From Eledone cirrhosa (lineage: Eukaryota), in NCBI GenBank assembly GCA_964016885.1, contig OZ024764.1, forward strand, positions 5,208,001 to 5,272,000: a stretch of 64,000 bases of DNA. The letters are read 5' to 3'. The notes below the pieces were generated by a model. The model worked only from the letters and a program-made list of their open reading frames with translations. It made no database searches and was not told the origin of the DNA. Below are positions 2,475 to 62,009 of the stretch, one piece after another; positions within the stretch are counted from its first letter, which is position 1; the number at the start of each line of letters is the position of its first letter. Both the position numbers and the translations under genes were made by a program.

Positions 2475-4930
2475 TTGTTGTACACCAGTTACCATAACTC
2501 TAGCAACCCATCACATTTATTTCTACTGAATCTCATATTTGTTAAGTTTAACGTAGAGATTATAGTAATATCAATGTCTTGCTGTAGCTTATAGGGTAGG
2601 TTACCATAGGGTAGGTTACTGTAGGGTAGGTTACCATAGGGTAGATAGTGTCTGGTAGGTTACCATAGGGTAGGTTACGATAGGGTAGGATAGTGTTTGG
2701 TAGGTTACCATAGGGTAGGTTACTGTAGGGTAGGTTACGATAGGGTAGGATACTGTAGGGTAAGTTACTGGAGCGTAGGTTACGATAGGGTAGGTTACCA
2801 TTGGGTAGGTTACCATTGGGTAGGTTATTATAGGGTAGGTTACCACAGGGTAGGTTACCATAGAATAGGTTACTGTAGGGTATTTTACCATAGGGTATGT
2901 TACCATAGGGTAGGTTACCATAGGTAGGTTACCTTAGGGTAGGTGACCATAGTGTAGGTTACCATAGATTAGGTTCTGTATGGTAGGTTAGGTTACTATA
3001 GGGTAGGTTACCATAGGGTAGGTTACGATAGGGTAGGTTACCATAGCGTAGGTTACTATTGGGTAGGTTACCATAGGGTAGGTTACTGTAGGTTAGGTTA
3101 CGTAGGGTTGGTTACCATAGGGTAGGTTGCCATAGAGTAGGTTATTATAGGGTAGGTTACCATAAGGTAGATTACCTCAGGGTAGGTTACTGTAGGGTAG
3201 GTTACCATGGGGTAGGTTACCATAGGGTAGGTTACCATAGTGTAGGTTACCTTAAATTAGGTTACCACAGGATAAGTTACCATATGGTAGGTTACTGTAG
3301 GTTAGGTTACCATAGGTCAGGTTACCATAGGGTAGGTTACTATAGGTTGCTACCATTGGGTAGGTTACTGTAGGGTAACATAGGTTACCATAGTGTAGGT
3401 TAATATAACATAGGTCACCATAGTGTAGGTTACTTTAGATTAGGTTACCATAGGGTAGGTTACCACAGGATAGGTTACCATAGGGTAGGTTACTATAGGT
3501 TGTTACCATAGGGTAGGTTACGATATGGTTGGTTACCATAGTGTAGGTTACTATAACATTGGTTACCATAGTGTAGGTTACCTTAATTTAGGTTACCATA
3601 GGTTAGGTTACCGTATCGTAGGTTACTGTAGGTTAGGTTACCATAGGGTAGGTTACTATAGGGTAGGCTACCAATGATAGGTTACCATAGGGTAGGTTAC
3701 CACAGGATATGTTACCATAGGGTAGGTTACTGTAGGGTAGGTTACTATAACATAGGTCACCATAGTGTAGGTTACTTTAGATTAGGTTACCATAGGGTAG
3801 GTTACCACAGGATAAGTTACCATATGGTAGGTTACTGTAGGTTGTTACCATAGGCTAGGTTACTATAACATAGGTTACCAAAGTGTAGGTTTCTATAGGT
3901 TGTTACCATAGGGTAGGTTACTGTAGGGTAGGTTACCATAGGTTAGGTTACCATAGTGTAGGTTACTGTAGGGTAGGTTACTGTAGGGTAGGATACTGTA
4001 GGGTAGAATACTGTAGGGTAGGTTACCATAGGGTAGGATACTGTAGGGTAGGTTACTGTAGGGTAGGTTACTGTAGGGTAGGATACTGTAGGGTAGGTTA
4101 CTGTAGGGTAGGATACTGTAGGGTAGGTTACCGTAGGGTAGGTTACTGTAGGGTAGGTTACCATAGGGTAGGATACTGTAGGGTAGGTTACTGTAGGGTA
4201 GGATACTGTAGGGTAGGATACTGTAGGGTAGGTTACCATAAGGTAGGATACTGTAGGGTAGGATACTGTAGGGTAGGATACTGTAGGGTAGGATACTGTA
4301 GGGTAGGTTACTGTAGGGTAGGTTACCGTAGGGTAGGTTACTGTAGGGTAGGTTACCATAGGGTAGGATACTGTAGCGTAGGTTACTGTAGTGTAGGTTA
4401 CCATAGGGTAGGTTATTATAGTATAGGTTACCGTAGGGTAGGTTTCCATGAAGTAGGTGACCATAGGGTAGGTTACTATAAGTAAGGTTACCATAGGGTA
4501 GGTTTCCATGAAGTAGGTTACCACAGGGTAGGTTAACATAAATTAGGTTACCTTAGGGTAGGTTACCATAAGTTAGGTTACCATAGGGTAGGTTTCCACA
4601 AGGTATTAACATAAAGTAGGTTACCATAAGTTAGGTTACCATAGGGTAGGTTACCATAAGTTAGGTTACCAGAGGGTAGGTTACCATAGGTTTGTTAAGG
4701 TTAGGCTAGGCTGGTCTACTCGGTGAGTTAAAACTCACTTGTGACTGTAGTGTTTTAGAATAAGTGTCTTAATCTTTCGTGCACCACTAAATTTTTTAAC
4801 TATTTCCCCTGAAACTGCCTTATTTTGGGGAGGTTATCTTATCAATCGAATAGCGTCCTAAATCTAAATTACACCTCAGAATTTTAGGGGCCACGCTATG
4901 TACCGGATAGACTTGTACACCGGCATATAT
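2475..4930 (+). mobile_element. Left-truncated pogo/Tigger-like non-autonomous DNA transposon with internal 15-bp minisatellite
   Basis: Right end GACTTGTACACCGGCATATA matches the TIR of the complete copies; the left end was lost at the junction near 2475. Confidence 0.6.
2590..4710. repeat. 15-bp minisatellite (TAGGGTAGGTTACCA / TAGGGTAGGTTACTG variants)
   Basis: Direct reading; about 140 degenerate units. Confidence 0.98.
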
Positions 4931-6466: not shown

Positions 6467-6548
6467 TAAATAAATAATGTAATATATATATATATGTATT
6501 TGTGTGTGTATCTATTTATATATTTAACTATATTTTTTGTAATCACAG

Positions 6549-6590
6549 GACTGATACAGAGGAGAGTATCGCTCCAGAAAAGAATGACGA
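6549..6590 (+). CDS. Candidate micro-exon type E2 (42 nt), TDTEESIAPEKND(E)
   Basis: tttaactatattttttgtaatcacAG | GACTGATACAGAGGAGAGTATCGCTCCAGAAAAGAATGACGA | GTAAGT. GC-richer island in AT-rich flanks; phase 0 is closed by TGA. Confidence 0.68.
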
Positions 6591-6663
6591 GTAAGTTTTA
6601 GTTTTACATACTATCTAACCATTATTCTATCTGTTCCTTCCCATCTCTCTCTCTCTCTCTCTT

Positions 6664-6697
<34 letters not shown>

Positions 6698-6826
6698 GTA
6701 AGGTGTATTACTGGCTGTGTAAAACGGTCCAATAAATTTTTGTTAGCAATATTAAGTCCTCCACGCTTTTGTATATCTCCAATTCCATTCAAGGGAACAG
6801 CTAGATGATGTAAAACGGAGTATTTG

Positions 6827-6930
6827 TATCAAAATGAAAATCCGAAGGCAAGGTAAAATTTCCAATCATTTTAATCACGTTGTGATTAAAATGATTGGAA
6901 ATCTTACCTTCCTTTGGATTTTCATTTTGA

Positions 6931-6932
<2 letters not shown>
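6827..6932. repeat. Fold-back palindrome, ~52-bp arms, 3-nt loop
   Basis: TATCAAAATGAAAATCCGAAGGCAAGGTAAAATTTCCAATCATTTTAATCAC gtt GTGATTAAAATGATTGGAAATCTTACCTTCCTTTGGATTTTCATTTTGATA. Copies near 14068, 30200, 37247, 53355, 60267 and 61280. Confidence 0.95.
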
Positions 6933-6965
<33 letters not shown>

Positions 6966-6986
6966 GACTCTGTCTCTTATAAACCA

Positions 6987-7497
6987 CGTTGGCTATTATG
7001 ACACTCTCTCCAACATAGAGAGCTATGTTGGCTAATATGACTCTCTCTCTCCCTCTCTATGTTGGCTATTATGACTCTCTCTCTCTCCCTCTCTATGTTG
7101 GCTATTATGACTATCTCTCTCTATGTTGGCTATAATGACTCTCTCTCTCTATTTATGTTGGCTATTATGACTCTCTCTCTCTCTCTCTCTCCCTCCCTCT
7201 CTATGTTGGCTATTATGACTCTCTCTCTCCCTCTCTATGTTGGCTATTATGACTCTCTCTCTCTCTATGTTGGCTATAATGACTCTCTCTCTCTCTATGT
7301 TGGCTATTATGACTCTCCCACTCTATGTTGGCTATTATGACTCTCTCTCTCTCTATGTTGGCTATAATGACTCTCTCTCTCTCTATGTTGGCTATAATGA
7401 CTCTCCCACTCTATGTTGGCTATTATGACTCTCTCTCTCTCTATGTTGGCTATAATGACTCTCTCTCTCTCTATGTTGGCTATTATGTCTCTCTCTG
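6987..7497. repeat. ~30-bp minisatellite (CT)n-ATGTTGGCTA(T/A)TATGA
   Basis: Direct reading. Variable copy number at 14229-14417, 30357-30900, 37399-37585, 53513-54056, 60423-60580 and 61431-61656. Confidence 0.95.
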
Positions 7498-7849
7498 TTC
7501 AAGCTTTATGAAGTTAGTTGAACATCTTCAAAGTCCTCCCATATTCGCCTTGTCTAATATGCGTTCTTGTACCTGATTATTTCCCCCAAATCTCCTGGGA
7601 AGTTATAAGCCATGATGGCTACCTATCTCACAATTTCTCTCCTGCCCACCCCCTCACACCACCATAGTCTATTCGACCAATCAAACCTCAGAAACATGTC
7701 CCCACCCATTACCAACCCCAACAAACTCTGCCATTACTACTACTTCTACTTTTCTTCTAGCCCTTACCAGCCCCAACAAACCCTGACATTATTACTACTA
7801 TTGTCCTTCTAGCTATGGGCTGAGGATAAATGGGGCTACCCCAAATTAA

Positions 7850-9241
7850 TAAATGAATATGAATCCGCGAGTTACCAAGCACCCATGCAAAGCTTTAATT
7901 CAGAGACAGGAAGCATACACACCCCACTGCAAAATTCACCCTTTCCCACGAGTGGTGGCAAATGCCCAAAACTCCGAGTTGGAACCATCAATGTAAGCAC
8001 AATGAAAGGAAGAGCAGGAGAAATTGTAGAGATGCTAGAGCGAAAGAAAATTGATGTATGCTGTGTGCAAGAGACTAGATGGAGAGCAGAGTCCGCTGGA
8101 GTCCTTGCAGGCAGAAGTCAGTGCTACCAACTTGTCTGGGTAGCAAATGACAACAGGATGGGAGGTGTAGCTATCCTATTAGCTGACAAATGGGTAGATA
8201 AGGTAATCTCAGTGAACAGGGTGAATGCAAGAATAATGAAACTTGGACAAGTCCTGAATAAAACAATTGCCACAATAATATCAGCTTACGCACCCCAATT
8301 GGGGTTGCCAGCTGACTATAGCGGGGAATTTAGTTTAGAGGTCGGTGTCCACCAGGGCTCTGTTCTTAGCCCACTCCTGTTCGTTGAAGTATTGCAAGCA
8401 ATAACGGAGGTGATTATGACCGGTGCCCATGGGAACTCCTATATGCGGATCATCTCACACTTATAGCCGAATCTATGGTGGAACTATACTTGCTCAGTAT
8501 GTAGAAAAGGAGTAGGCTGGCTGCAAAAGGCTTTCCCCTCAAAATGAAAAGCAGACTGTATGATGTGGGTATACGAATAGCAATGTTACATAGTAGTGAA
8601 ACCTTGGCGCCGTCTGTGGAAGAATTGCATAGATTAGAAAGAAATGAAGCCTGCATGCTCCGATGGATGTGTAATAGTAATATACGCAAACGGCAAAGCA
8701 TAAATGAATTGAGAGAGTGACTGAGCATAAGAGGAATGAAATGCTGTGTGCAGGAGAGGAGGTTGCATTGGACATGTGATGCGTATGAAGGATGACAGCT
8801 GTATAAAAAGGTGTAGAGCAGTAGAAGTCGATGGAAGCCGTAGAGTGGGGAGACCCAAGAAGAGCTGGGATGAGGTGATAAAAGCCGACCTTACCCAGTT
8901 GCACCTCTCAAAGGCGATGACACAGGACCGTCACCTCTGGCATCAAGCAGTAATACAGAAGACCTGACTCCCCAGGGCTACAAGCGGAAGCTGAAGCGTA
9001 TGCTCCCACCCTCTCCGACTGTACAGTGGACGTATAGGCGCCACAGACAAAAAGCACCCAGGACTCACTGTAAATGAGGTTGGTGTTAGGAAGGGCATCC
9101 AGCTGTAGGAATCAAGCCAGAATCAGTTCCTGTATGAGCAAGACAAGGTCAGCTGAACAGACACTGCCCACAACAGGACAACCCGTCTAACCCATGCTAG
9201 CGTGGAAGAATGGACGTAAAACAGTGATGATGAAGATGATA
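7850..9241 (+). pseudogene. Internally deleted RTE-clade LINE (AP-endonuclease + RT fragments, 3' UTR, GAT tail)
   Basis: LRVGTINVSTM...IDVCCVQETRW (APE) and ISAYAPQ fused to GVHQGSVLSPLLF (RT); GRPKKSWDEVI; ends in GATGATGAAGATGAT. Confidence 0.92.
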
Positions 9242-11646
9242 TATCATATATGCCAGTGTACAAGTTGACATTTGGAGCCTAAAAATATCTCTCCAAAACC
9301 AGGGGTCGACTTGTCTGCTGAATATAGTATGTTACCTTTACCACTGAGGGGTAAACAGTGAAACTGCCTGCCTAACACTTGTTGTACACCACTTACCATA
9401 ACTCTAGCAACCCACCACATTTATTTCTACTGAATCTCATATTTGTTAAGTTTAACGTAGAGATTATAGTAATATCAATGTCTTGCTGTAGCTTATAGGG
9501 TAGGTTACTGTTGGGTAGGTTACTGTAGCGTAGGTTACCATAGGGTAGGATAGTGTCTGGTAGGTTACCATAGGGTAGGTTACTGTAGGGTAGGTTACTG
9601 TAGCGTAGGTTACCATAGGGTAGGATAGTGTCTGGTAGGTTACCATAGGGTAGGTTACTGTTGGGTAGGTTACTGTAGCGTAGGTTACCATAGGGTAGGA
9701 TAGTGTCTGGTAGGTTACCATAGGGTAGGTTACTGTTGGGTAGGTTACTGTAGCGTAGGTTACCATAGGGTAGGATAGTGTCTGGTAGGTTACCATAGGG
9801 TAGGTTACTGTAGGGTAGGTTACGATAGGGCAGGATACTGTAGGGTAAGTTACTGGAGGGTAGGTTACCATAGGGTAGGTTACCGTAGGGTAGGTTACCA
9901 TTGGGTAGGTTATTATAGGGTAGGTTACCACAGGGTAGGTGACCATAGAATAGGTTACTGTAGGGTATTTTACCATAGGGTATGTTACCATAGGGTAGGT
10001 TACCTTATGGTAGGTTACCTTAAGGTAGGTTACCATAGGGTAAGTTACCATAGGGTAGGTTACCTTAGGGTAGGTGACCATAGTGTAGGCTACCATAGGT
10101 TAGGTTCTGTATGGTAGGTTAGGTTACTATAGGGTAGGTTACCATAGGGTAGGTTACGATAGGGTTAGTTACCATAGGGTAGGTTACCATAGCGTAGGTT
10201 ACTATTGGGTAGGTTACCATAGGGTAGGTTACTGTAGGTTAGGTTACGTAGGGTAGGTTACCATAGGGTAGGTTGCCATAGAGTAGGTTATTATAGGGTA
10301 GGTTACCATAAGGTAGATTACCTCAGGGTATGTTACCATATGGTAGGTTACCATAGGGTAGGTTACTGTAGGGTAGGTTACCATAGTGTAGGATACCTTA
10401 AATTAGGTTACCACAGGAAAAGTTACCATATGGTAGGTTACTGTAGGTTAGGTTACCATAGGGTAGGTTATCATAGGTTAGGTTACCAAAGGGTAGGTTA
10501 CTATAGGTTGTTACCATTGGGTAGGTTACTGTAGGGTAACATAGGTTACCATAGTGTAGGTTAATATAACATAGGTCACCATAGTGTAGGTTACCTTAGA
10601 TTAGGTTACCACAGGATAGGTTACCATATGGTAGGTTACTGTAGGTTAGGTCACCATAGGGTAGGTTACTATAGGGTAGGCTACTATAGGTTGTTACTAT
10701 AGGGTAGGCTACTATAGGTTGTTACCATAGGGTAGGTTACTATAGGTTGTTACCATAGAGTAGGTTACAATATGGTTGGTTACCATAGTGTAGGTTACTA
10801 TAACATTGGTTACCATAGTGTAGGTTACCTTAATTTAGGTTACCATAGGTTAGGTTACCGTATCGTAGGTTACTGTAGGTTAGGTTACAATAGGGTAGGT
10901 TACTATAGGGTAGGCTACCAATGATAGGTTATGATGGGTTAGGTTCCATAGGGTAGGTTACCACAGTATATGTTACCATATGCTAGGTTAGGTTACCATA
11001 GGGTAGGTCACCATAGTGTAGGTTACTTTAGATTAGGTTACCATAGGGTAGGTTACCACAGGATAAGTTACCATATGGTAGGTTACTATAACATAGGTTA
11101 CCAAAGTGTAGGTTTCTATAGGTTGTTACCATAGGGTAGGTTACTGTAGGGTAGGTTACTGTAAGGTAGGTTACCATAGGGTAGGATACTGTAGGGTAGG
11201 TTACCAGAGGGTAGGTTATTATAGTATAGGTTACCGTAGGGTAGGTTTCCATGAAGTAGGTGACCATAGGGTAGGTTACTATAAGTTAGGTTACCATAGG
11301 GTAGGTTTCCATGAAGTAGGTTACCACAGGGTAGGTTAACATAAATTAGGTTACCTTAGGGTAGGTTACCATAAGTTAGGTTACCATACGGTAGGTTACC
11401 ATAGGTTTGTTAAGGTTAGGCTAGGCTGGTCTACACGGTGAGTTAAAACTCACTTGTGACTGTAGTGTTTTAGAAGAAGTGTCTTAATCTTTCGTGCACC
11501 ACTAAATTTTTTAACTATTTCCCCTGAAACTGCCTTATTTTGGGGAGGTTATCTTATCAATCGAATAGCGTCCTAAATCTAAATTACACCTCAGAATTTT
11601 AGGGGCCACGCTATGTACCGGATAGACTTGTACACCGGCATATATA
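9242..11646 (+). mobile_element. pogo/Tigger-like non-autonomous DNA transposon containing a 15-bp minisatellite (9494-11425)
   Basis: Left end TATCATATATGCCAGTGTACAAGTTGAC is an inverted repeat of the right end GACTTGTACACCGGCATATA(TGGTA); TA-flanked. Confidence 0.7.
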
Positions 11647-11984
11647 TATATGCAAAGAGAGCGAGAGAAACAGCGGGAGTGAGAGAGATACATTAAAACA
11701 ATAACAGAGGTCTGACTGGAGAATTTACTTTAGAATTTTAAGAGAAAAGAGGAAGGTTTCAGACTTCTGGAATTCCTTCACGAAAATGTCCTATTTATCT
11801 GTAACACAAACTTAAAAAATGAGACAACCACTTAATAACATATAGATCATGTGAGCCCACCAGCTAGATAGATTTCCTTGTTACCATAAGACAGAGTGAC
11901 TGTTATAAACACAAAGTCCCTCCCCAGTGAAGAATGCACCTCCCAACATACCTTAGGAGACAAACTGGAAGAAAAGATTATAGA

Positions 11985-13070
11985 TCAAAATCAAAAGGTC
12001 TTAAAGTCAATTTGGTAAAGACTAAAGTTCTAGTAAGTAGAAAGGAAAACAGGGCCCAGATCTCTTCAGGTAAACTGTCCTGCTCAGTGTGCAGAAAAGG
12101 AGTAGGTAAAAATTCCATCCTATGTCCCATATAGAAATGATGGGTACACAAAAGATGTCGTGGGATCTCAGGGAGGCTAACAAAGAACGTAGCTTCTACA
12201 TGTGGCCAATGAACAGGAGCAGGAAATATCAAGAGCTCTCGGGTTACAATCTCCTTCAAATACCCGAAAGTCTCTGTAGAGGTGGTAGATAGTTTCTGTT
12301 ACCTAGGTGACTAAATCAGCAGTGGAGTAGGGTGGTCCCAAAACTCAGTAACAAGAGTGAGATTAGATTGGAGAAAGTGCAGGGATCTACTACTACTGCT
12401 AACAACAAAAAGTTTTTCCCTCAAAATGAAGGGCAGACTGTATGATGCAGGTATACAAACAACAATGTTGCACAGCAGCGAGACCTGGGCACTGTGTGTA
12501 GAAGATCTGTAAAGATTGGAAAGAAATGAAGCCTCCATGCTTCAATGGATGTGCCATAGTAATATATGCAAATGGCAAAACATAAATGTACTGCGAGAGA
12601 AATTAGGCATAAGAGGGGTTAGATGCAGTGTGCAGGAGAGGGATTGTTTTGGTATAGACATGTGATGTGTATGAAGGGTGACAGCTGTATAAAAAGGTGC
12701 CGAACAAACAAAGTTGACAGAAACCGTGGAGTGGGCAGGTCTAGGAAGACATGGGATGAGGTAAGGAAAGCTGACTTTGCACAATTACACCTCGCTAAGG
12801 CAATGACACAGGAGGGTGACCTCTGGCGCTATGCACAATTATAGAGGACCTGCCCTCATAAATCCACGAGCTGAGGCATATATCTAGTATGTAACACCTT
12901 CCCCACCATCATCCCTCCCAAACACCTTCACCCCTATAACTACATCCACAATCCACCAGACATTTTCCCTACCAACACCCCACACAAGTTCCCAAACCTC
13001 ACCATAAAGTGGTCCTGCTGCAGCCATGACAAATGTGCCCAGTCCACACTGTACAGTGGTCTTGTAGGTG
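11985..13070 (+). pseudogene. Decayed RTE LINE fragment (paralog of 5270-6270)
   Basis: Same motifs; keeps ~90 bp of 3' region that is absent from the 6130 copy. Confidence 0.88.
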
Positions 13071-13138
13071 TCCTGCCAAAAATCAATATTGGGCCTTAAA
13101 ACCTTGAGTCCCTTTTGTTCTGTGTATGAACATAAATA

Positions 13139-13731
13139 ATTGTTTCTACTTTTGGCACAAGGCCAGCAATTATCCAGTGCATTACTGGTACTTTATTTTA
13201 TCGACCCCGTAAGGATGAAAGGCAAAGTTAACCTTGGCGGGATTTGAACTCAGATCATACAGGGAGGTAACTCTATGCTTCAAAGCATGGCGTCCGACTC
13301 TCTACCGATACTGCCAATCCACCGCCTGAACATAAATAAATAATTGTTTCTATTTTAGGCACAAGGCCAGCAATTACCCAGTACATGACTGGTACTTTAT
13401 TTTATCGACCCCGTAAGGATGAAAGGCAAAGTTAACCTCGGCGGGATTTGAACTCAGATCATAAAGGGACGTAACTCTATGCTTCAAAGCATGGCGTCCG
13501 ACTCTCTACCGATACTGCCAATCCACCGCCTGAACATAAATAAATAATTGTTTCTATTTTAGGCACAAGGCCAGCAATTACCCAGTACATGACTGGTACT
13601 TTATTTTATCGACCCCGTAAGGATGAAAGGCAAAGTTAACCTTGGCGGGATTTGAACTCAGATCATACAGGGAGGTAACTATGCTTCAAAGCATGGCGTC
13701 CGACTCTCTACCGATACTGCCAATCCACCGC
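13139..13731 (-). mobile_element. Three tandem full-length tRNA-derived SINEs (~203-bp period)
   Basis: Minus strand has an A-box-like TGGCAGTATCGG and B-box GAGTTCAAATCC; units are separated by TGAACATAAATAA(ATAAT). Also at 36318-36912 (x3) and 59519-59912 (x2). Confidence 0.82.
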
Positions 13732-13820
13732 CTGAACATAAATAAATAATGTAATATATATATATATGTATGTGTGTGTGTATCTATTTATATATTTAAC
13801 TATATTTTTTGTAATCACAG

Positions 13821-13862
13821 GACTGTTCCACTGCAGAGTTCCGCTAGAGGAAACAGTGACGA
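13821..13862 (+). CDS. Candidate micro-exon type E3 (42 nt), TVPLQSSARGNSD(E)
   Basis: aatcacAG | GACTGTTCCACTGCAGAGTTCCGCTAGAGGAAACAGTGACGA | GTAAGT. Differs from E2 at 12/42 nt with nearly identical flanks. Confidence 0.68.
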
Positions 13863-21116: not shown

Positions 21117-21173
21117 GAACACCACTAATTTCTCTAATTACAGCCCTTCACTATCCCATTGCAAGAAATTTAC
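21117..21173 (+). CDS. Candidate micro-exon type E4 (57 nt; alternative acceptor gives 30 nt, 21144-21173), NTTNFSNYSPSLSHCKKF(T); weak donor, possibly a pseudo-exon
   Basis: ctcattacAG | GAACACC...AAGAAATTTAC | GTGTTA. The donor lacks 4 nt relative to E1 (GTAAGTGTTACC vs GTGTTACC); internal second acceptor ctaattacAG. Confidence 0.4.
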
Positions 21174-23820: not shown

Positions 23821-23853
23821 CAACCTTCTTATGATAGATTACAAGAAATTTAT
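23821..23853 (+). CDS. Candidate micro-exon E1 (33 nt), NLLMIDYKKF(M)
   Basis: AG|...|GTAAGT; one substitution relative to the 462 copy (TTA>ATA, L>I). Confidence 0.6.
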
Positions 23854-29923: not shown

Positions 29924-29965
29924 GACTGATACAGAGGAGAGTATCGCTCCAGAAAAGAATGACGA
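29924..29965 (+). CDS. Candidate micro-exon E2 (42 nt)
   Basis: Identical to 6549-6590 with AG/GTAAGT boundaries. Confidence 0.68.
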
Positions 29966-36999: not shown

Positions 37000-37041
37000 G
37001 ACTGTTCCACTGCAGAGTTCCGCTAGAGGAAACAGTGACGA
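37000..37041 (+). CDS. Candidate micro-exon E3 (42 nt)
   Basis: Identical to 13821-13862 with AG/GTAAGT boundaries. Confidence 0.68.
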
Positions 37042-44285: not shown

Positions 44286-44342
44286 GAACACCACTAATTT
44301 CTCTAATTACAGCCCTTCACTATCCCATTGCAAGAAATTTAC
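44286..44342 (+). CDS. Candidate micro-exon E4 (57 nt, weak donor)
   Basis: Identical to 21117-21173. Confidence 0.4.
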
Positions 44343-46990: not shown

Positions 46991-47023
46991 CAACCTTCTT
47001 ATGATAGATTACAAGAAATTTAT
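46991..47023 (+). CDS. Candidate micro-exon E1 (33 nt), NLLMIDYKKF(M)
   Basis: Identical to 23821-23853 with AG/GTAAGT boundaries. Confidence 0.6.
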
Positions 47024-53078: not shown

Positions 53079-53120
53079 GACTGATACAGAGGAGAGTATC
53101 GCTCCAGAAAAGAATGACGA
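53079..53120 (+). CDS. Candidate micro-exon E2 (42 nt)
   Basis: Identical to 6549-6590 with AG/GTAAGT boundaries. Confidence 0.68.
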
Positions 53121-59518: not shown

Positions 59519-59912
59519 ATTGTTTCTACTTTTGGCACAAGGCCAGCAATTATCCAGTGCATTACTGGTACTTTATTTTATCGACCCCGTAAGGATGAAA
59601 GGCAAAGTTAACCTTGGCGGGATTTGAACTCAGATCATAAAGGGACGTAACTCTATGCTTCAAAGCATGGTGTCCGACTCTCTACCGATACTGCCAATCC
59701 ACCGCCTGAACATAAATAAATAATTGTTTCTATTTTAGGCACAAGGCCAGCAATTATCCAGTACATGACTGGTACTTTATTTTATCGACCCCGTAAGGAT
59801 GAAAGGCAAAGTTAACCTCGGCGGGATTTGAACTCAGATCATAAAGGGACGTAACTCTATGCTTCAAAGCATGGTGTCCGACTCTCTACCGATACTGCCA
59901 ATCCACCACCCT
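59519..59912 (-). mobile_element. Two tandem tRNA-derived SINEs (unit 3)
   Basis: Two units here versus three in units 1 and 2. Confidence 0.8.
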
Positions 59913-59999
59913 GAACATAAATAAATAATGTAATATATATATATATGTATGTGTGTGTGTATCTATTTATATATTTAACTATATTTTTTGTAATCACAG

Positions 60000-60041
60000 G
60001 ACTGTTCCACTGCAGAGTTCCGTTAGAGGAAACAGTGACGA
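60000..60041 (+). CDS. Candidate micro-exon E3 variant (42 nt), TVPLQSSVRGNSD(E)
   Basis: AG/GTAAGT boundaries; GCT>GTT (A>V) relative to the other E3 copies. Confidence 0.66.
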
Positions 60042-60105
60042 GTAAGTTTTAGTTTTACACACTATCTAACCATTATTCTATCTGTTCCTTCCCGTCTCTC
60101 TCTCT

Positions 60106-60153
<48 letters not shown>

Positions 60154-60359
60154 AGATGTATTATTGGTTGTGTAAAACGGTCCAATAAATTTTTGTTAGC
60201 AATATTAAGTTCTCCACGCTTTTGTATATCTCCAATTCCATTCAAGGGAACAGCTAGATGATGTAAAAAAATCCGAAGGCAAGGTAAAATTTCCAATCAT
60301 TTTAATCATGTCGTGATTAAAATGATTGGAAATCTTACCTTCCCTTCGGATTTTCATTT

Positions 60360-60403
<44 letters not shown>

Positions 60404-61018
60404 CTCTGTCTCTTATAAACCACGTTGGCTATTATGACACTCTCTCCAACATAGAGAGCTATGTTGGCGATTATGACTCTCTCTCTCCCTCTCTATGTTG
60501 GCTATTATGACTCTCTCTCTCTCTATGTTGGCTATAATGACTCTCTCTCTCTATTTATGTTGGCTATTATGTCTCTCTCTGTACAAAGTTAATGAAGTTA
60601 GATGAACATCTTCAAAGTCCTCCCATATTCGCCTTGTCTAATATGCGTTCTTGTACCTGATTATTTCCCCCAAATCTCCTGGGATGTTATAAACCATGAT
60701 GGCTACCTATCTCACAATTTCTCTCCTGCCCACCCCCTCACACCACCATAGTCTATTCGACCAATCAAACCTCAGCAACATGTCCCCCACCCATTAAAAA
60801 CCCCAACAAACTCTGCCATTACTACTACTTCTACTTTTCTTCTAGCCCTTACCAGCCCTTTATTTTATCGACCCCGTAAGGATGAAAGGCAAAGTTAACC
60901 TCGGCGGGATTTGAACTCAGATCGGAAAGGGACGTAACTAAATAAATAATGTAATATATATATATGTATTTGTGTGTGTATCTATTTATATATTTAACTA
61001 TATTTTTTGTAATCACAG

Positions 61019-61060
61019 GACTGATACAGAGGAGAGTACCGCTCTAGAAAAGAATGACGA
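61019..61060 (+). CDS. Extra candidate micro-exon, E2 variant (42 nt), TDTEESTALEKND(E)
   Basis: AG/GTAAGT boundaries; ATC>ACC and CCA>CTA relative to E2. The second change creates TAG in the phase-1 frame, so only the phase-2 frame stays open. Confidence 0.66.
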
Positions 61061-61124
61061 GTAAGTTTTAGTTTTACATACTATCTAACCATTATTCTAT
61101 CTGTTCCTTCCCGTCTCTCTCTCT

Positions 61125-61172
<48 letters not shown>

Positions 61173-62009
61173 AGGTGTATTATTGGTTGTGTAAAACGGT
61201 CCAATAAATTTTTGTTAGCTTTTGTATATCTCCAATTCCATTCAAGGGAACAGCTAGATGATGTAAAACGGAGTATTTGTATCAAAATGAAAATCCAAAG
61301 GCAAGGTAAAATTTCCAATCATTTTAATCTCGCCGTGATTAAAATGATTGCAAATCTTACCTTGCCTTTGGATTTTCATTTTGATATATATATATATATG
61401 TATATATATGACTCTGTCTCTTATAAACCACGTTGGCTATTATGACACTCTCTCCAACATAGAGAGCTATGTTGGCTAATATGACTCTCTCTCTCCCTCT
61501 CTATGTTGGCTATTATGACTCTCTCTCTGTCCCACTCTATGTTGGCTATTATGACGCTCTCTCTCTCTCTATGTTGGCTATTATGACTCTCTCTCTCTCT
61601 ATGTTGGCTATTATGTCTCTCTCTCTCTATCTATGTTGGCTATTATGTCTCTCTCTGTTCAAGGTTTATGAAGTTAGTTGAACATCTTCAAAGTCCTCCC
61701 ATATTCGCCTTGTCTAATATGCGTTCTTGTACCTGATTATTTCCCCCAAATCTCCTGGGATGTTATAAACCATGATGGCTACCTATCTCACAATTTCTCT
61801 CCTGCCCACCCCCTCATACCACCATAGTCTATTCGACCAATCAAACCTCAGAAACATGTCCCCACCCATTACCAACCCCAACAAACTCTGCCATTACTAC
61901 TACTTCTACTTTTCTTCTAGCCCTTACCAGCCCCAACAAACCCTGACATTATTACTACTATTGTCCTTCTAGCCATGGGCTGAGGATAAATGGGGCTACC
62001 CCAAATTAA

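Follow-up and report, generated by a model that had tools for sequence, protein, structure and literature searches.

Genes for conotoxins and snake venoms are a familiar case in which exons diverge far more than introns do, and there the mature toxins are secreted and lie in separate genes. An excess of exon over intron divergence is also familiar from extracellular recognition domains. Here we analyse a 64-kb stretch of the 3.0-Gb genome of Eledone cirrhosa (the window, positions 5208001–5272000 of contig OZ024764.1, hereafter C25), which lies inside an array of micro-exons. Such an excess falls on this array and on the exon for a transmembrane (TM) helix that follows it. The gene is neprilysin-like, of the peptidase family M13, and it has a massively expanded and hypervariable micro-exon tail that is predicted, from the gene's exon order, to be cytoplasmic, a location at which hypervariability is unexpected. 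The feature is far larger than the observation in an earlier note, which had compared two of the exons (E2 and E3) and had thought of a toxin or an extracellular recognition molecule; that context is not supported for about 100 tandem exons of one neprilysin-like gene that stand before its TM exon and are predicted to be cytoplasmic, and the locus showed neither a toxin fold nor a cysteine framework nor a signal peptide.

In protein architecture, the closest described systems are the Drosophila Nepl genes and rat Kell, which share with this gene the M13_N and M13 domains, a single TM helix before the ectodomain, the motifs VNAFY and ENIAD, local tandem expansion and the loss of a catalytic residue. 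Rat Kell has Lys in place of the catalytic Glu (PMC2259306), and for almost all Drosophila Nepl proteins secretion is predicted (PMC8223033). In contrast to the latter, the four paralogues found on C25 (P1, which is the gene of the window, to P4) retain the TM helix, ahead of which they carry up to about 100 hypervariable exons. In exon structure the nearest parallel is found in the micro-exon genes (MEGs) of schistosomes, which have many very small symmetric exons, in-frame skipping and a raised ratio of non-synonymous to synonymous substitution rates (dN/dS), and whose products carry a signal peptide, are either secreted or exposed on the surface, and are said to occur in platyhelminths only (PMC4350168). 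The present locus likewise has many short symmetric exons, with 100 of 100 copies a multiple of three in length and in phase 2, but it differs in that its candidate start exon is hydrophilic, with no hydrophobic phase-2 exon in the 63 kb upstream, and in that its exons, being tandem copies of a single unit, have introns in common and lie on what is predicted to be the cytosolic side of a peptidase fold.

The spider silk genes Flag and Argiope MaSp2 are built from iterated exon–intron units in which successive introns are near-identical, and this has been ascribed to intragenic recombination (PMC1885213). Our array is similar in its iterated units and near-identical introns; its exons, however, measure 27–78 nt and differ at up to about half of their bases, unlike the long structural repeats of silk. 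Tetherin (BST-2) is a type II protein with dN/dS above 1 in its cytoplasmic tail and TM region, a pattern linked to viral antagonists (PMC4078312). It offers an analogy of pattern only, being unrelated, short-tailed and without an exon array. No description of such an array was found in the accessible literature on octopus or cephalopod neprilysin, M13 peptidases, micro-exons or tandem exon duplication, of which subscription papers were poorly covered. Neprilysin transcripts are reported from octopus glands and white body (PMC12607849, PMC6522055), and no tie between these and the array locus was possible.

The flanks shared by the micro-exons were used to scan 664 kb of C25 (4808001–5472000). 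We see 103 copies of the acceptor flank spread over 530 kb (C25:4871418–5399533), all on the plus strand; 54 belong to class A (42 nt) and 49 to class B, and the standard acceptor is missing at four more class B donor anchors. Before counting, three copies of class B whose donor is shortened were excluded, giving the set of 100. The lengths in this set are 27, 30, 33, 36, 42 or 78 nt, a GT donor is present in 99, and there are 54 distinct sequences, one of which recurs in nine copies. Read in phase 2, none of the 100 contains a stop codon, while the other two frames are closed in 81 and in 36 copies, so that the phase-0 and phase-1 frames are both ruled out for the array. The phase-2 frame that had been used for E2 and E3 is thus fixed by the whole array, and the alternative named at the time, the phase-1 frame, is the one closed in 36 copies. 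As no exon ends in TA or TG, any micro-exon can join any other without creating a stop. The codons of 99 micro-exons add up to 1,307, with T, N, S, E, K and D as abundant residues. The 78-nt exons resemble fusions of two exon types, and 4 of the 103 copies have damaged donors. Genome-wide pattern searches gave matches on contig C25 only, among the matches listed (for one pattern, 100 of 115). The depth of DNA contigs was 232–296 on one exact intron piece and 5–17 on others, which fits many copies but is not a copy number. A further 42-nt exon type, rich in Tyr and Asp and about 55% distant from other class A exons, occurs in class A flanks at C25:5100139, 5276887, 5338386 and 5355120; about 150 nt downstream of it there is a class B exon body without the usual acceptor.

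After the last micro-exon comes a 113-nt exon of phase 2 to 1 (C25:5413283) that encodes a hydrophobic helix, with a 19-residue mean hydropathy of 2.9; no hydrophobic micro-exon was found in the array. This TM exon directly precedes the first M13_N exon in all four paralogues, in compatible phase, and exons with M13 motifs follow in compatible phases to make up a full M13 ectodomain. Pfam PF05649 (Peptidase_M13_N) was matched by one of four exons searched (E 0.0099), and PF01431 (Peptidase_M13) by two of ten distinct exons (E 4e-4 and 4e-5), with a third over the cut-off as a longer frame (range 2e-5 to 4e-4). The best PDB matches of the ectodomain exons are ECE-1 and neprilysin. Protein searches with single ectodomain exons (of 43 and 59 aa among longer proteins, of 35 aa in a representative library, and in an atlas at 0.9) gave no match, the queries being too short to show absence. 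Compared with human neprilysin, ectodomain cysteines are lost mostly in pairs and the others kept in pairs, under the pairings that we assume for the human protein, and this fits a luminal domain. M13 proteins are typically of type II with the active site outside (PMC2259306), and an array placed before the TM exon of such a protein is predicted to be cytoplasmic. It likely encodes a tail of up to about 1,300 residues, if the topology is that of the family and the micro-exons are spliced onto the TM exon. The tail of canonical neprilysin has about 30 residues. A candidate start exon, hydrophilic and conserved in three paralogues, is found 12 kb upstream of the array. It is preceded by a TATA-like box and a GC-rich stretch (C25:4857760–4858996), and directly before the candidate ATG a short unit has been amplified in tandem over about 1.1 kb in P1 and not in P3.

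The order of micro-exon, TM exon and M13 exons is kept in all four paralogues, and in number of tail exons they make a series within a single genome, from 1 up to about 100: about 100 in P1, 6 in P2, 1 in P3, and at least 8, of its own types, in P4. P2 is inverted at 7.15–7.34 Mb, with collinear blocks that are mostly 94–99% identical, and in P3 the single micro-exon in the 30 kb before the TM exon sits 1.2 kb from it. The TM exon has diverged at the pace of the tail, in contrast to a conserved ectodomain. In gapped alignments (ungapped comparisons with P1 may be inflated by indels), the TM exon differs at 25 of 89 aligned bases between P1 and P3 and at 33 of 98 between P1 and P4, i.e. about 30%, against 2–7% in its flanks; between P3 and P4, the proportions of non-synonymous and synonymous differences (pN and pS) are 0.44 and 0.26. 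Ectodomain exons differ between P1 and P3 at 2/111, 4/131, 3/91, 5/114, 4/105 and 2/68 bases, and between P1 and P4 at 4/131, 1/91, 13/114 and 6/65, with one exon partly covered and one not covered in the latter comparison. Over all paralogues the range is 0–11%, and the last exon gives an identical peptide in all four.

In this nearly frozen ectodomain the catalytic residue has been lost twice: in the assembly, the HExxH site reads HKIFH in P1, HQIFH in P3, and HEIFH in P2 and P4. ENIAD and the NAY/FY motif (as VNAFY) are present in P1 and P2, the two paralogues examined, and the C-terminal CxxW is absent, with LLFW in its place in all four. By the four-motif rule for active neprilysins (HExxH, ENIAD, NAY/FY and CxxW; PMC8223033), all four sequences are neprilysin-like and not active neprilysins, and P1 and P3 are predicted to be inactive. 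Some further differences were seen among the paralogues. The first M13_N exon of P1 (C25:5416317) has Cys changed to Phe, and its donor GTATCT is weaker than the GTATGT of P2; 6 nt that are present in P2 and P4 are missing from P1 and P3; and about 153 kb are inserted in one P1 ectodomain intron compared to P2 (C25:5458315–5611486), with a 46-bp satellite at both ends. A 1,031-codon open tandem repeat in a P1 ectodomain intron (C25:5447008–5450100) is probably a minisatellite that is open by chance. In P2 the segment that contains the candidate start exon and micro-exons one and two is present twice (C25:7243360–7315000, minus strand), and P2 may have alternative starts. In P3 and P4, the micro-exons nearest the TM exon end in basic residues and cysteines, as would suit palmitoylated juxtamembrane tails.

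The pair from which the pattern was first described was re-aligned. E2 (window 6549–6590, TDTEESIAPEKND, with a CAG acceptor and a GTAAGT donor) and E3 (window 13821–13862, TVPLQSSARGNSD) are 42-nt phase-2 class A exons on the plus strand, and the manual alignment of the earlier note proved exact: 12 of 42 nt are mismatched, compared with 1 in the 80 nt upstream and 2 in the 55 nt downstream. The nine amino-acid replacements are correct as given, with no synonymous codon pair. Along about 1.9 kb of aligned downstream intron, dead fragments of long interspersed nuclear elements (LINEs) included, no 50-column bin has more than 4 mismatches, compared to 12 in the exon bin, and the near-identity of the flanks reaches beyond the splice signals. 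The probability of 12 mismatches in 42 is 3e-11 at a background of 2% and 7e-7 at 5%. Path averaging by NG86 assigns 0.5 synonymous and 11.5 non-synonymous steps; with about 22% synonymous sites, arithmetic on these counts puts 0 of 12 synonymous at P near 0.05. The statement that all the differences are non-synonymous is therefore right as a count, but as evidence of selection from one pair it is only borderline. A-to-I editing copied back to DNA was dropped as the source of the differences, because 9 of the 12 are transversions.

Across the array, mean exon diversity is 0.25 for class A and 0.47 for class B, and 0.02–0.06 for the flanks; the high diversity switches on and off at the splice sites. 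In sampled pairs, the exon was more divergent than any 42-nt intron window in 120 of 120 cases for class B and 96 of 120 for class A, and intron windows at least 25% different numbered 0 of 1,440 and 128 of 5,512, respectively. Intronic peaks comparable to those of the exons, which would have spoken against the pattern as first described, did not occur. Substitution rates were then estimated on a minimum spanning tree of distinct equal-length variants at most 30% apart, taken from one assembly. Class A shows 3.5–4 synonymous and 39–39.5 non-synonymous changes (dN/dS 3.3–3.8, P 0.008), its dS of 0.02 equals the flank rate of 0.018, and codons with a single change divide into 2 synonymous and 35 non-synonymous (P 0.003). 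Class B has 15.5–16 synonymous and 40 non-synonymous changes, i.e. a dN/dS of 0.8, and its dS of 0.09 is about 50-fold above the 3 in 1,687 (0.002) of its flanks. Selection alone is thus rejected for class B, where a dS so far above the intron level means that recombination that homogenises introns while moving or sparing exons is required too. The earlier note had offered diversifying selection or a homogenisation of flanks that spares the exon, and each explains a part: the first is supported by class A and not by class B or the pooled data, and the second is needed for class B. Class B exons that are about 40% apart can lie in surroundings about 99% identical over 3 kb on either side, and 46 of 343 class B pairs have at least 1 kb of such flank on both sides; exons one base apart are found in different intron contexts, and one context is found with unrelated exons.

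Four runs, X1 to X4, were compared on window positions 59880–61180. Among the runs listed as containing these sequences, none is recorded as RNA, which speaks neither for nor against expression. The type of run X4 is not on record and was judged by its pattern of cover on the DNA. X1–X3 cover the exons and the adjacent intron; X4 has a depth of 390 and 883 on two exons and of 0 in three adjacent intron bins. These exons are class A copies of 42 nt on the plus strand, at 60000–60041 (TVPLQSSVRGNSD, flanking intron bins without cover) and 61019–61060 (TDTEESTALEKND, following intron bins without cover). Two X4 contigs, with a depth of 326 and 42 letters on a side, carry a joint in which base 61060, where a TDT-type exon ends, is followed by base 60000, where a TVPLQ-type exon starts, and this joint is absent from X1–X3. 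In five of five E2-type copies, a TVPLQ-type exon comes next in the genome. The joint, a TDT-type end to a TVPLQ-type start that bears on E3 also, is read as a splice from an E2-type to an E3-type exon, as observed in one sample of one study; it may be a back-splice circle instead. E2-specific letters, including one at window position 61039, are also present in this exon-only run, and the array is expressed in this one run. This one joint, beside which 87 more are recorded, fits the inclusion of consecutive exons, and the all-to-all compatibility of frames would permit skipping.

Overall, we consider it probable that the array encodes a long disordered cytoplasmic tail, the modules of which are diversified by selection while recombination keeps the introns alike. 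A juxtamembrane tail exon would have been duplicated, its introns included, and then multiplied by unequal crossing-over. Via the shared flanks, gene conversion and crossing-over would erase intron differences up to the splice sites, and the same exchange would carry exons between intron contexts, while selection would keep the frame and favour distinct modules in the tail and TM helix, so preserving and adding exon differences. The selective agent might be an antagonist at the cytosolic and membrane face of a surface protein, e.g. an intracellular parasite or a viral protein, which is a guess by analogy with tetherin. The tail would then provide sorting or signalling motifs (YxxPhi, acidic clusters) in a changing set, or serve as decoys. 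Many class B modules carry a YxxPhi-type motif at their end, with a middle that varies (YKKF, YKKV, YENI). Such motifs were counted in 16 of the 34 distinct class B peptides, against a shuffle mean of 4.4; they derive mostly from one ancestral exon end and are hence not independent. Among these related copies, the motifs suggest sorting or SH2-type signalling. The locus would point to an intracellular conflict or a modular signalling tail in the animal. A bolder version, conceivable but speculative, is a receptor turned inside out: a dead neprilysin fold would serve as a conserved surface binding domain, about 100 swappable micro-exons would build a variable tail of tyrosine-based and acidic motifs, the flanks would be recombination handles for cassette exchange, splicing would pick combinations, and the whole would be driven by an arms race with intracellular antagonists.

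Several points weigh against the reading of a selected cytoplasmic tail. The class B dN/dS lies below 1, the pooled dN/dS of both classes is 1.07–1.54 and not significant, and the tests use the spanning tree of one assembly, from which pairs more than 30% apart or of unequal length are left out. A Pfam M13 match was obtained for only 4 of 12 ectodomain exons scanned, the others being assigned by motif and order, and the start exon is only a candidate, with a weak donor. NxS/T sequons, present in 16 of the 34 different class B peptides against a shuffle mean of 9.9 (the copies being related), would suit the luminal side better. No read joins the array to the TM exon, X4 is one sample of one study, and its contigs cannot prove full-length inclusion.

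Concerted evolution alone would dispense with positive selection: old exons would drift under weak constraint (frame and stops) while conversion or unequal crossing-over resets the introns. The class B dN/dS with its 50-fold raised dS, the lack of significance in the pooled data and the mosaic of exon and intron contexts all agree with this, and the near-identical iterated introns of spider silk genes provide a precedent (PMC1885213). We nevertheless think it rather unlikely, as class A combines a dS at the intron rate with a significant excess of replacements, and as the single-copy TM exon peaks in the same way between paralogues whose ectodomain exons are nearly equal. Moreover, something must stop conversion from overwriting the exons when diversity sets in with the first base of the exon and stops at the GT. 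These same sharp edges at AG and GT would follow from a hypermutation or templated replacement targeted to exons, which would raise synonymous changes, non-synonymous changes and in-frame indels alike, as would the finding of 40% exon divergence within 6 kb of intron that is 99% identical. The class B exon changes, with 23 transitions and 37 transversions against 3 and 0 in the flanks (Fisher P 0.07), also lean that way. Such targeting is very improbable, though, since the class A dS is not raised and its transition/transversion ratio equals that of the flanks (P 0.8), and since many copies are still identical, including nine of one exon; the fact that all 100 copies are free of stops and frameshifts implies selection anyway, and no such targeting mechanism was identified.

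The selected cytoplasmic tail must also be set against a luminal or secreted array, i.e. a mucin-like or peptide-precursor transcript with an unseen signal peptide that is not an M13 tail. The array peptide is about 25% Ser plus Thr and enriched in sequons, many class B modules end in KK, and MEG products are secreted (PMC4350168). Set against these features are the hydrophilic candidate start exon, conserved in three paralogues, the lack of any hydrophobic phase-2 exon within 63 kb upstream, the position of the sole hydrophobic exon of phase 2 to 1 after the array, as the TM exon, and the order of micro-exon, TM and M13 exons in all four paralogues, which together leave the luminal array a slim chance. 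A decaying or artefactual array (a pseudogene in the making, or an over-expanded assembly) would suit the Glu to Lys change in the P1 HExxH, the Cys to Phe change, the 6-nt deletion, the weakened donor, the roughly 150 kb of satellite in one intron and the 4 of 103 damaged donors, but is scarcely credible given 54 distinct exon sequences that are all in frame, several variants in the exon-only run X4, open ectodomain exons wherever these were found, and an independent expansion in P4. In short, about 100 replicate units in two classes, one that speaks for selection (A) and one for conversion (B), with edges as sharp as the splice sites, make the question of selection, homogenisation or targeted mutation directly testable at this locus.

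The window itself holds 12 micro-exon copies, all on the plus strand, most of them in a higher-order repeat of about 23 kb (window 32–59929) that has four exons per unit in the order B-A-A-B and is present in about 2.6 copies, 95.8–99.5% identical. Apart from E2, E3 and the two exons covered by X4, class A is represented by 42-nt copies with the E2 sequence at 29924–29965 and 53079–53120, and by one with the E3 sequence at 37000–37041. Class B provides 33-nt exons at 462–494 (NLLMLDYKKF, with a YxxPhi-type motif), 23821–23853 and 46991–47023 (both NLLMIDYKKF). Two further class B copies with a shortened donor lie at 21117–21173, with a residual GTGTTA, and, in like form, at 44286–44342; the former would be 57 nt in frame if used, and skipped otherwise. 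The near-invariant acceptor and donor flanks (about 80 nt upstream and 55 nt downstream), seen around E2 at 6469–6645, are common to all class A units, and the flank pair of the class B units is related to them.

Introns of the 23-kb repeat contain LINE remnants and tandem repeats of 15, 30 and 204 bp. Scans for long open reading frames in the array flanks showed nothing but LINE remnants and simple repeats. The 15-bp satellite (consensus ATAGGGTAGGTTACC) has a strong G skew and occupies window 2591–4690 and 9495–11405, with further copies, and it occurs in most intron units of the array. Elsewhere in the genome, other canonical M13 genes are found as a cluster of three at 7.50–7.83 Mb of contig C24 and on contigs C2 and C3, some with open frames of 466–713 codons around the M13 exons, and weak matches to the M13 C-terminus were also seen at C25:24978256 and on contig C23.

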